DNA of 12,469 nt, from UHGV virus genome UHGV-0112027. One strand, 5' to 3'. Positions 5,882 through 7,089 of the stretch are shown here, piece by piece. Origin of the DNA: a virus. Position numbers and translations under genes: made by a program. The notes beneath the pieces were generated by a model that saw only the letters and a list, made by a program, of their open reading frames with translations, ran no database searches and was not told the DNA's origin. Every line of letters begins with the position of its first letter. Position 1 is the first letter of the stretch.

Positions 5882-5970
5882 AGCGTCTTCATGGGACCAA
5901 AGCTGACAAAAAAGCTGTAACATGTGATTAAAGCGATCTTTGGAGACACACTTTGCTTGTCCTGGTACAG

Positions 5971-5999
5971 TTGCTTTCATGTGACAAAGAGAACATAAT
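5971..5999 (+). promoter_or_regulatory. Candidate sigma70 promoter for the cargo cassette (TTGCTT, 17 bp, CATAAT)
   Basis: -35 TTGCTT at 5971-5976, 17-nt spacer, -10 CATAAT at 5994-5999; sits between the cI stop and the cargo ORFs. Confidence 0.35.
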
Positions 6000-6030
6000 T
6001 TGTACAGTCAGTTCTCTATGGAAAATCATC

Positions 6031-6210
6031 ATGTTCAAGAAAATTTTGAAGAAAGTGAAATCAGAGACGCCTTCACATGGTGTGGATGAACTCATTCAAC
6101 TTTTCGATGAGATAGATGAAAAGCAAAAAAGAATTCGCGAGGAAAAAGAAAAATTTAGAGAGGATTGGCAAAATGGAGCTCGAACAACAAAGCACAGATT
6201 CACTATTTGA
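6031..6210 (+). CDS. Small highly charged hypothetical protein (59 aa), overlaps the start of the 285-aa cargo ORF
   Basis: In-frame ATG at 6031 within track ORF 5953..6210; K/E-rich (EIDEKQKRIREEKEKFREDW); weak RBS; could be non-coding. Confidence 0.3.
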   Translation: MFKKILKKVKSETPSHGVDELIQLFDEIDEKQKRIREEKEKFREDWQNGARTTKHRFTI

Positions 6211-7030
6211 TTTTCTTTACATAGACCGTGTACGCGTTAGCTCCCTCACAGCCCAGCTTCACAATGCTGGTGTAGTGACGAGCGTAAAACAAACTACTTC
6301 TGACACAGATAAATCTAATAAATCCGTTGAATTAAGCGTCAAGATTCTTAAAGGAAAAGTGGGGACTGACGACACCTTAACACATTCGCAAGAGAAAACT
6401 TTCGACGCTTCATGGTCATTACCAATTAATTTTCTCGATAAATTAGATGAAGCAGGAATGATTAAAACTGGACTTAATGGTGAGAATCTTGGTTCAGTTG
6501 TTCATTCTGTTGGAAAAATGCGCATTTTTGATGTGTCAACTATTCAGAAAATTATGCCTATTTTTGGTGAGATAGCCCAAGCACAATTAAACACGGTCAA
6601 CCTTCCCCCAAAAGCCAAAGCGAAGCTTAAAGGGAAACTCACCCCAGATGAAATTGAGATATCTCCAGGGCTTACCATTGGTGTAGTTAAGAAACTCATT
6701 AATATCGTTCCCAACATCCTCCAGGTTGATTTTATTGATGAGAATGGCAACCTGATGTGGATGTCTATTGATAAAGAATATTTAACAATTAATCCTGATG
6801 ACTTAGCCTTAAAATATGGTGGCACCATACCGGGTACCTGGCATGTCATTGGATTGATTGATGCCTTGCCAGATTCTGTACAAGATCAGAATATCAATAA
6901 CCCTGATTTCCCTGAACACGATCTCAAGTCAGGATTACAATCCTTCCTGGATATGGTCAAGGTACAAGCTGGTAGAGGAAGTGATTCGTATGGGATGACA
7001 CCACTTCTCATCTTTAGAACAGTAGGCTGA
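6173..7030 (+). CDS. Hypothetical cargo protein (285 aa) at the rexAB-equivalent position; candidate phage-exclusion/abortive-infection factor of unrecognised family
   Basis: ATG 6173 with GAGG Shine-Dalgarno 9 nt upstream (track start 6116 is also an ATG but lacks an RBS); AT-rich (about 30-38% GC in sampled 60-nt stretches versus about 60% in bet); followed by a strong terminator; no Walker or other catalytic motif visible by eye. Confidence 0.7.
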   Translation: MELEQQSTDSLFDFLYIDRVRVSSLTAQLHNAGVVTSVKQTTSDTDKSNKSVELSVKILKGKVGTDDTLTHSQEKTFDASWSLPINFLDKLDEAGMIKTGLNGENLGSVVHSVGKMRIFDVSTIQKIMPIFGEIAQAQLNTVNLPPKAKAKLKGKLTPDEIEISPGLTIGVVKKLINIVPNILQVDFIDENGNLMWMSIDKEYLTINPDDLALKYGGTIPGTWHVIGLIDALPDSVQDQNINNPDFPEHDLKSGLQSFLDMVKVQAGRGSDSYGMTPLLIFRTVG

Positions 7031-7056
7031 TATTCTATTTACCTAACACACTATAA

Positions 7057-7089
7057 AAAGCCCCCGGCCACCGTGCCGGGTTTTCTTTT
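7057..7089 (+). terminator. Rho-independent terminator ending the cI-cargo transcription unit
   Basis: A-run, then stem CCCGGC (7063-7068) / GCCGGG (7075-7080) with a 6-nt loop, then TTTTCTTTT (7081-7089). Confidence 0.7.

Follow-up and report, generated by a model that had tools for sequence, protein, structure and literature searches.

Architecture of the immunity region and its cargo

The stretch of DNA analysed in this study (12,469 nt, hereafter the window) derives from a lambda/Rac-type hybrid prophage of E. coli, whose immunity region carries two overlapping genes between the cI-type repressor gene and PL. The features of this region are the following:

5189-5881, plus strand: cI-type repressor (RefSeq CDS; Pfam Peptidase_S24 1.5e-18, HTH_3 1.5e-6), the left, conserved flank of the cargo slot
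5881-7062, plus strand: variable cargo slot, from the cI stop codon to the shared terminator
5971-5999, plus strand: predicted sigma-70-type promoter belonging to the cassette itself (-35 TTGCTT at 5971-5976, 17-nt spacer, -10 CATAAT at 5994-5999)
6031-6210, plus strand: small partner gene, 59 aa (RefSeq CDS in strain 13TMH22, same coordinates)
6173-7030, plus strand: DUF6414-family gene, 285 aa (RefSeq CDS in strain 13TMH22, same coordinates)
7063-7090, both strands: bidirectional intrinsic terminator, the tImm equivalent (G+C-rich stem 7063-7080, T-run 7081-7090, A-run upstream; terminator scan)
7216-7265, plus strand: OL operators and PL, a 50-nt direct repeat of OR (5111-5160) with 74% identity

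The original prediction had proposed that cI, cargo, terminator and PL follow each other on one strand as in lambda cI-rexAB-tImm-PL, and that the cargo hence sits at the rexAB-equivalent position. All elements were recovered in this order, with the cargo between cI (5189-5881) and the terminator stem (7063-7080), followed by PL (7231-7259). The AT-richness claimed for the cargo was likewise borne out, as its GC content is 0.39 compared to about 0.50 in the surroundings (0.36-0.40 across 5850-7050 vs 0.45-0.56 in the flanks). The full cI ORF spans 5153-5881, with the RefSeq start at 5189. The hexamers of PL (TTGATA-17-TATTAT, 7231-7259) match at 10 of 12 positions and represent the best promoter match of the region; folding of the PL leader shows nothing out of the ordinary (z = -0.93), and an Rfam scan of the window returned no match.

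Among 5,426 genomes searched, the segment 5882-7089 is 100% identical in chromosomal prophages of five complete E. coli genomes and 99.4% identical in two further ones; in the phage collection it has no match at the DNA level. In the identical prophage of strain 13TMH22, RefSeq annotates P, O, a YdaT-domain protein and a Cro-like HTH protein on the minus strand, and the XRE/S24 repressor, a 59-aa hypothetical protein, a DUF6414 protein, Kil, Gam, Bet and Exo on the plus strand.

The limits of the cargo can be read directly from phage PhiR70_1, which is 98.3% identical to the window over 4065-5880, including the cI region, and again over 7063-9736, and unrelated in between. The exchangeable slot is thus exactly 5881-7062, and since homology resumes at 7063, the terminator is part of the conserved right flank. 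The segment 5882-7089, as originally delimited, therefore does contain the variable slot, but also takes in a terminator that does not belong to it. In place of the two genes described here, PhiR70_1 carries three, namely an unknown protein of 136 aa, an MqsA-type antitoxin (PF15731, 1.9e-17) and a weakly SecB-like protein with a weak match to PD-T4-9_C. Conversely, window positions 5971-7101 recur at 83% identity in a Kluyvera prophage whose repressor is different, a span that corresponds to the cassette together with about 60 nt of upstream sequence and the terminator. This exchange of cargo in a near-identical phage and the occurrence of the same cassette beside a different repressor substantiate the horizontal acquisition that had been suggested from composition. 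It is also known that the cI-N region is a mosaic hotspot, which holds rexAB and bstA (PMC8585504).

The homology to the Kluyvera cassette begins at 5971, which is the first position of the putative cassette promoter (5971-5999), an element that had been missed in the first reading of the sequence. Each of the 27 enterobacterial-type cassettes that were examined carries the motif TTGNNN-N17-CATA(A/C)T at a nearly constant distance of about 202 nt (198-212) from the start of the DUF6414 gene, on its upstream side, against a background rate of 3.7% per 210 nt. These 27 cassettes include some whose proteins are only 36-40% identical and some located away from any repressor. Shine-Dalgarno-like sequences precede both ORFs (GAGG at 6160-6163 for the larger one). 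In addition, the terminator scan revealed no plus-strand terminator between the cI stop codon and the cassette, so that read-through from the repressor promoter is to be expected. Taken together, the lack of a cI-cassette terminator and the conserved putative promoter make it plausible that the cassette is expressed in the lysogen.

In all six contexts checked, the GC content of the cassette lies below that of its flanks. With a putative promoter, its genes, a terminator, a deviant composition and a presence that varies between near-identical phages, the cassette is a textbook moron, the activity of its promoter being predicted from the conserved motif. We thus read the segment as a mobile unit of two genes, a moron that is complete in itself and occupies the cargo slot between cI and PL of a lambdoid prophage. 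Since near-identical phages exchange their cargo so precisely, this slot is a well-defined E. coli hotspot that lends itself to testing.

The DUF6414 protein and its small partner

Profile searches place the 285-aa protein in the Pfam family DUF6414 (PF19952; 41.1-41.3 bits at a curated gathering cut-off of 25, E = 2e-10), with residues 12-240 aligned to profile positions 2-245 of 283. The match stops short of the C-terminal ~40 residues, in which the most conserved motif of the clade, GR....YG.TPLLIFR, is located. The protein further matches phrog_9699 (3.6e-73), a family with no function assigned, and no NCBIfam model. None of the defence models of PADLOC-DB 2.0.0 matched it even at E <= 1, and this database is one that we take to contain models for the Dodola system. 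The protein is nevertheless not without a family, as it belongs to a very large one with a DUF name.

A search for close homologues retrieved 34 proteins of 156-310 aa from Enterobacterales, and a profile search of 1.84 billion cluster representatives yielded 1,439 clusters (defined at 50% identity) at E <= 1e-3, of which 472 reached E <= 1e-30; the best 150 of the 1,439 are all single-domain proteins of about 260-350 aa. DUF6414 is matched by 131 of 146 diverse clade members, though weakly (best 2.9e-14), which places the clade at the edge of that family. Except for two kinase matches at chance level, the same 146 proteins gave no PADLOC match at E <= 0.01. A profile search started from them returned the same clade only and did not reach any true DolA, and the single match of a tblastn search against plasmids also belongs to this clade.

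Two motifs characterise the clade, an N-terminal S-[VL]-[YF]-D-F-[LI]-Y-x-D-x-x-R and a C-terminal G-R-x(4,5)-[YF]-G-x-T-P-L-[LIV]-I-F-R, and the polar residues D13, D18, R21, Q28, D78, D120, D230, R268, T276 and R282 are near-invariant. An AlphaFold2 model from an alignment of 27 sequences was of mediocre quality (pLDDT 70.6) with residues 33-79 disordered, whereas with 146 sequences the prediction reached a pLDDT of 91.1 and a pTM of 0.84, with residues 37-53 and 62-78 now resolved as a long beta-hairpin. From this model we are confident in predicting a soluble protein whose core is an OB fold and whose long hairpin (residues 37-78) is polar. The OB-fold matches obtained by fold comparison are Ten1, RPA14/32, RMI2 and the N-terminal domains of MCM proteins. 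Neither a Foldseek comparison of the model with the PDB, in which nothing was significant, nor a profile search of PDB sequences, in which nothing was found, provided a counterpart, which leaves about 200 residues without a solved equivalent; no catalytic fold was recognised in the PDB fold comparison either. The combination of an OB fold with a hairpin, as in the MCM N-terminal domains, and the separate AAA+ partner of Dodola suggest a putative ring-forming nucleic-acid binder.

A pore-forming effector with the hairpin as its membrane stem was also considered. Ser, Thr, Gly and charged residues abound in the hairpin, both faces of which are polar throughout the family (mean Kyte-Doolittle values of about -0.6 and -1.3). 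With this polarity on both sides, and with no hydrophobic segment present, a membrane pore is unsupported and the idea was rejected.

The start of the large gene at 6173 was upheld. A 304-aa form initiating at 6116 was rejected, as the in-frame extension is not conserved, being interrupted by a stop codon in Serratia; in Rosenbergiella it starts with GTG/Val. The 285-aa ORF begins 38 nt inside the 59-aa ORF and in another frame, and one could imagine that a programmed +1 frameshift fuses the two. We consider this unlikely, since by-eye inspection of the overlap revealed neither a shift-prone site nor an upstream Shine-Dalgarno sequence of the kind found in the prfB frameshift element. The large ORF also has a start codon and a ribosome-binding site of its own.

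The original prediction had treated the 59-aa ORF as incidental, a view that does not stand. A homologous small ORF overlaps the start of the DUF6414 gene at all 53 viral and phage loci and, when one genome was scanned for each species, at 18 of 19 loci, which cover Alphaproteobacteria, Neisseria, Alistipes, Deltaproteobacteria and Acidobacteria; such an ORF also lies upstream of the DUF6414 gene in Klebsiella, Enterobacter, Serratia and Rosenbergiella. In the homologues the small ORF encodes 58-72 aa and extends 11-38 nt into the large ORF, in another frame. The product of the window is highly charged and predicted to be helical. Its N-terminus is basic and its C-terminal tail (NGARTTKHRFTI) is conserved; it matches phrog_29688 (9.5e-19), again a family with no function assigned. 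The small proteins have in common the basic N-terminus, a long charged helix and the tail G-[AS]-R-x-[TS]-[KN]-H-R-F-[TSR]-[ILV]. As this tail overlaps with the N-terminal leader of the large protein, which is variable and predicted with low confidence, the conservation of the tail is for the most part due to the small protein itself. A comparison with nine relatives over the 47 codons outside the overlap gave dN/dS values of 0.13-0.5 (two more relatives being saturated at synonymous sites), and judging from these ratios the small ORF is under purifying selection. By its constant pairing, the small protein is the conserved and obligatory partner of the DUF6414 protein.

Searches of Pfam and the PDB assigned the small protein to no family and returned only coiled-coil-like chance matches. 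The RefSeq label 'regulator of G-protein signaling domain-containing protein', which it bears in two genomes, is best treated as an artefact.

Genomic contexts of the pair

The pair ranges from Enterobacterales to Alistipes and Acidobacteria and is found in prophages of Proteobacteria, Bacteroidota and Acidobacteria. XRE-type HTH proteins account for 27 of the 60 non-redundant upstream neighbours; a Peptidase_S24 domain (CI/LexA type) is present in 18. Five neighbours are IS1595 transposases, with tail, baseplate, integrase and other genes making up the remainder. In Rac-like prophages of Klebsiella and Enterobacter, the pair directly follows RacR-like repressors, and in Bordetella avium phages it is also located after the repressor. 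Elsewhere it lies among structural genes. At the end of a Serratia prophage it follows the tail-fibre genes, and in a myovirus-like prophage of Rosenbergiella it is placed between genes for baseplate and tail, in both cases on the opposite strand. In Moraxella phage Mcat17 it directly precedes the gene of a large tail protein, and in Acinetobacter phage qsb1 it is flanked by the tail chaperone and tape-measure genes. An all-against-all BLAST of 22 loci revealed no conserved downstream gene. No gene for a ClpB-like or other AAA+ protein is present near the pair, be it among the ORFs of the window, in the RefSeq annotation of the prophage or among the called neighbours, and none is conserved at the 22 loci.

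At three alphaproteobacterial loci, inverted repeats of 25-29 nt bracket exactly the transposase, the small ORF and the DUF6414 gene, which identifies the pair as the passenger of a 2.1-kb element of the IS1595 family. These elements presumably belong to the ISNwi1 subgroup. The copy in the window has neither a transposase nor such inverted repeats, and is carried by the prophage.

Possible function and relation to known systems

The cassette is a credible candidate for a new phage-defence or addiction module, and literature searches by Pfam, PHROG and protein identifiers found no study of the pair. The reading we favour is that of a lysogen-expressed anti-phage function of the abortive-infection or exclusion type, for which position, mobility and the weak DUF6414 link speak, and which in our judgement has about an even chance of being correct. 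Several observations are in line with it: RexAB and BstA are known to reside in the cI-N slot (PMC8585504), the allelic cargo of PhiR70_1 is a toxin-antitoxin-chaperone-like set, and DUF6414 has been assigned to Dodola. Against it we count the PADLOC-negative clade members, the weak Pfam match and the polar hairpin.

Starting from the observed anatomy, mobility and conservation of the pair and its family placement, we infer a division of labour between the two proteins. In the lysogen, transcripts would start at the cassette's own conserved promoter and, through read-through, also at that of the repressor, and would end at the shared terminator, and the 59-aa and 285-aa proteins would be made as a translationally coupled pair. 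The DUF6414 protein could then act as a sensor or effector, possibly by binding nucleic acid or a component of phage replication via its OB core, and the small protein could be its obligatory regulator or neutraliser. In this way the pair might serve the element that carries it, as competing phages would be shut out or their infection aborted.

As the chief alternative, the cassette may be a toxin-antitoxin or addiction module that stabilises the carrier prophage or IS element, with the 59-aa protein as labile antitoxin, the DUF6414 protein as toxin and any anti-phage effect being secondary. This reading fits the evidence almost as well as defence does. A small gene upstream of and overlapping a larger one out of frame (by 38 nt in the window), conserved and inherited jointly with it (18/19 and 53/53 loci) and mobile together with it, is typical of type II systems, and the carriage by IS1595 elements inside their inverted repeats, just as the gene order, is accommodated equally well by addiction. 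Furthermore, the allelic cargo of PhiR70_1 includes an MqsA-type antitoxin, and the basic-then-hydrophobic C-terminus of the small protein resembles what we take to be ClpX recognition tails of the MuA type. However, no DNA-binding domain of an antitoxin could be recognised in the small protein and DUF6414 has no known toxin fold, and about half of the non-redundant contexts are lysogen-expressed repressor operons, which are typical of the defence morons RexAB and BstA (PMC8585504). Overall, we regard an addiction module as a serious but rather unlikely explanation.

It could also be imagined that the cassette is an accessory of lysogeny or host physiology that regulates prophage induction, recombination or replication, or some host process, and takes part in neither exclusion nor addiction. 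The resemblance of the OB core to RPA14/32, Ten1, RMI2 and the MCM N-terminal domain, which bind ssDNA and form complexes, would agree with such a role, as would the proximity of the cassette to the repressor and the early recombination genes. However, the cassette is dispensable, since near-identical phages lack it, and a role linked to immunity leaves unexplained why the same pair occurs among tail and baseplate genes and inside IS elements, so that we consider this explanation improbable. Least tenable, and in our view almost certainly wrong, is a bona fide Dodola system or its degenerate remnant, which the Pfam placement in DUF6414, given in a review as a domain of one Dodola protein, would favour, but which is contradicted by the lack of PADLOC matches (E <= 1 for the window protein, E <= 0.01 for the 146 clade members), by the constant 59-72-aa partner found instead and by the absence of a ClpB-like or AAA+ gene in the window and the RefSeq prophage and of a conserved one beside the 22 loci, so that the missing ClpB-like partner refutes Dodola as a system-level assignment.

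With the anti-phage function as our preferred reading, the closest positional parallel is lambda rexAB. Both loci have repressor, cargo, terminator and PL on the same strand, and in both the cargo consists of two genes, here predicted to be expressed in the lysogen from the repressor operon. The proteins themselves are different: there is no sequence match to RexA or RexB, neither product gave a PADLOC match or a Pfam match other than DUF6414, as had been anticipated when the main product was described as not resembling RexA/RexB, and the PHROG families carry no functional assignment. The cassette also differs in having a putative promoter of its own, and since neither product contains a hydrophobic segment, a RexB-like membrane channel is not to be expected.

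A similar picture is obtained for BstA, the abortive-infection protein of Salmonella phage BTP1, which in diverse Gram-negatives is strikingly associated with the site directly downstream of prophage repressors (PMC8585504). The cassette occupies the corresponding site and likewise has its own terminator after it, but BstA is a single protein and the cassette encodes a pair. With no PADLOC model and no Pfam family but DUF6414 matched by either protein, nothing links the pair to BstA, for which PADLOC, as we assume, contains a model. The toxin-antitoxin-chaperone cargo of PhiR70_1 resides in exactly the same slot between 98%-identical flanks; its proteins are unrelated, however, and its genes are three instead of two. 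The IS1595 passengers of Alphaproteobacteria represent the opposite case, as they are homologous pairs directly downstream of a transposase and inside 25-29-nt terminal inverted repeats, whereas the copy in the window is prophage-borne and has no transposase or such repeats.

Dodola (DolA/DolB) is an experimentally validated two-gene anti-phage system of Bacillus and Streptococcus, for which the reports give no mechanism; the preprint of its discovery paper does not contain the name Dodola in the text. The cassette is similar in consisting of two genes, one of them with a DUF6414 component that scores above the Pfam threshold. It differs in its partner, a 59-aa helical protein in place of the ClpB-like ATPase, and in that its clade is not detected by PADLOC and matches the Pfam profile weakly and without the C-terminal ~40 residues. 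The lack of both a PADLOC match and a ClpB-like neighbour means that the system of the 285-aa protein is not Dodola, and the cassette, which the system HMM does not detect and which has no ClpB-like partner, is best classed as a DUF6414 module with a small partner in place of ClpB. If it is protective, the pair would represent a compact two-gene defence system that is widespread, with 1,439 clusters at 50% identity and carriage by both prophages and IS1595 elements, and it would provide a handle on DUF6414 as the uncharacterised component of Dodola. As such, the DUF6414 core, which is combined with a 59-aa peptide in the cassette and with a ClpB-like ATPase in Dodola, offers a natural comparison from which its role could be approached.

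A hybrid immunity region and the right end of the window

The immunity region (4281-5084) is a hybrid, whose Rac-like part consists of a YdaS-type Cro-like gene and a YdaT-type gene in the cII position, and whose partners are an S24 cI repressor together with lambda-type O/P and Gam/Bet/Exo. Homology between the window and the RefSeq-annotated prophage of E. coli strain 13TMH22 stops at 11233, and to the right of this point two ORFs follow:

11287-11478, plus strand: AlpA/Xis-like ORF of 63 aa
11459-12451, minus strand: ORF of 330 aa

Judged by eye, the 330-aa ORF looks like an integrase. 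The integrase gene of 13TMH22 has plus-strand orientation, and an IS4-family element interrupts it.

The leader between PL and kil

No N-like ORF is present in the window between PL (7231-7259) and kil (7453/7537-7743). The 191-nt leader found there (7262-7452) is 94-99.5% identical across 16 lambdoid E. coli phages, in most of which no annotated gene lies beneath it. An Rfam scan of the window returned no match for this leader, and the stability of its predicted fold is not unusual (z = -0.93). The leader could thus far be read as a possible antitermination element of the RNA-based (put-like) kind.

Small ORF, mobile relatives and alternative cargo

In two E. coli genomes, RefSeq names the 59-aa ORF (6031-6210) a "regulator of G-protein signaling domain-containing protein"; the remaining genomes have it as a "hypothetical protein", and our family searches gave no support for the former name.

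In Alphaproteobacteria, the pair of small ORF and DUF6414 gene is a passenger of IS1595-family elements of about 2.1 kb, in which it directly follows the transposase and which end in terminal inverted repeats of 25-29 nt (GG.A.TTATATACGTG.TTGACC). Three loci carry such an element with the pair:

L017, 3836-5964
L030, 3844-5940
L022, 2216-4264

The 98%-identical phage PhiR70_1 (PV340577) carries a different cargo in the same cI-PL slot:

L087 (the PhiR70_1 locus), 1937-3459: cargo of three genes

One codes for an unknown protein of 136 aa, one for an antitoxin of the MqsA type (PF15731, 1.9e-17), and the third for a protein that resembles SecB weakly and also matches PD-T4-9_C weakly; taken together they look like a toxin-antitoxin-chaperone set.
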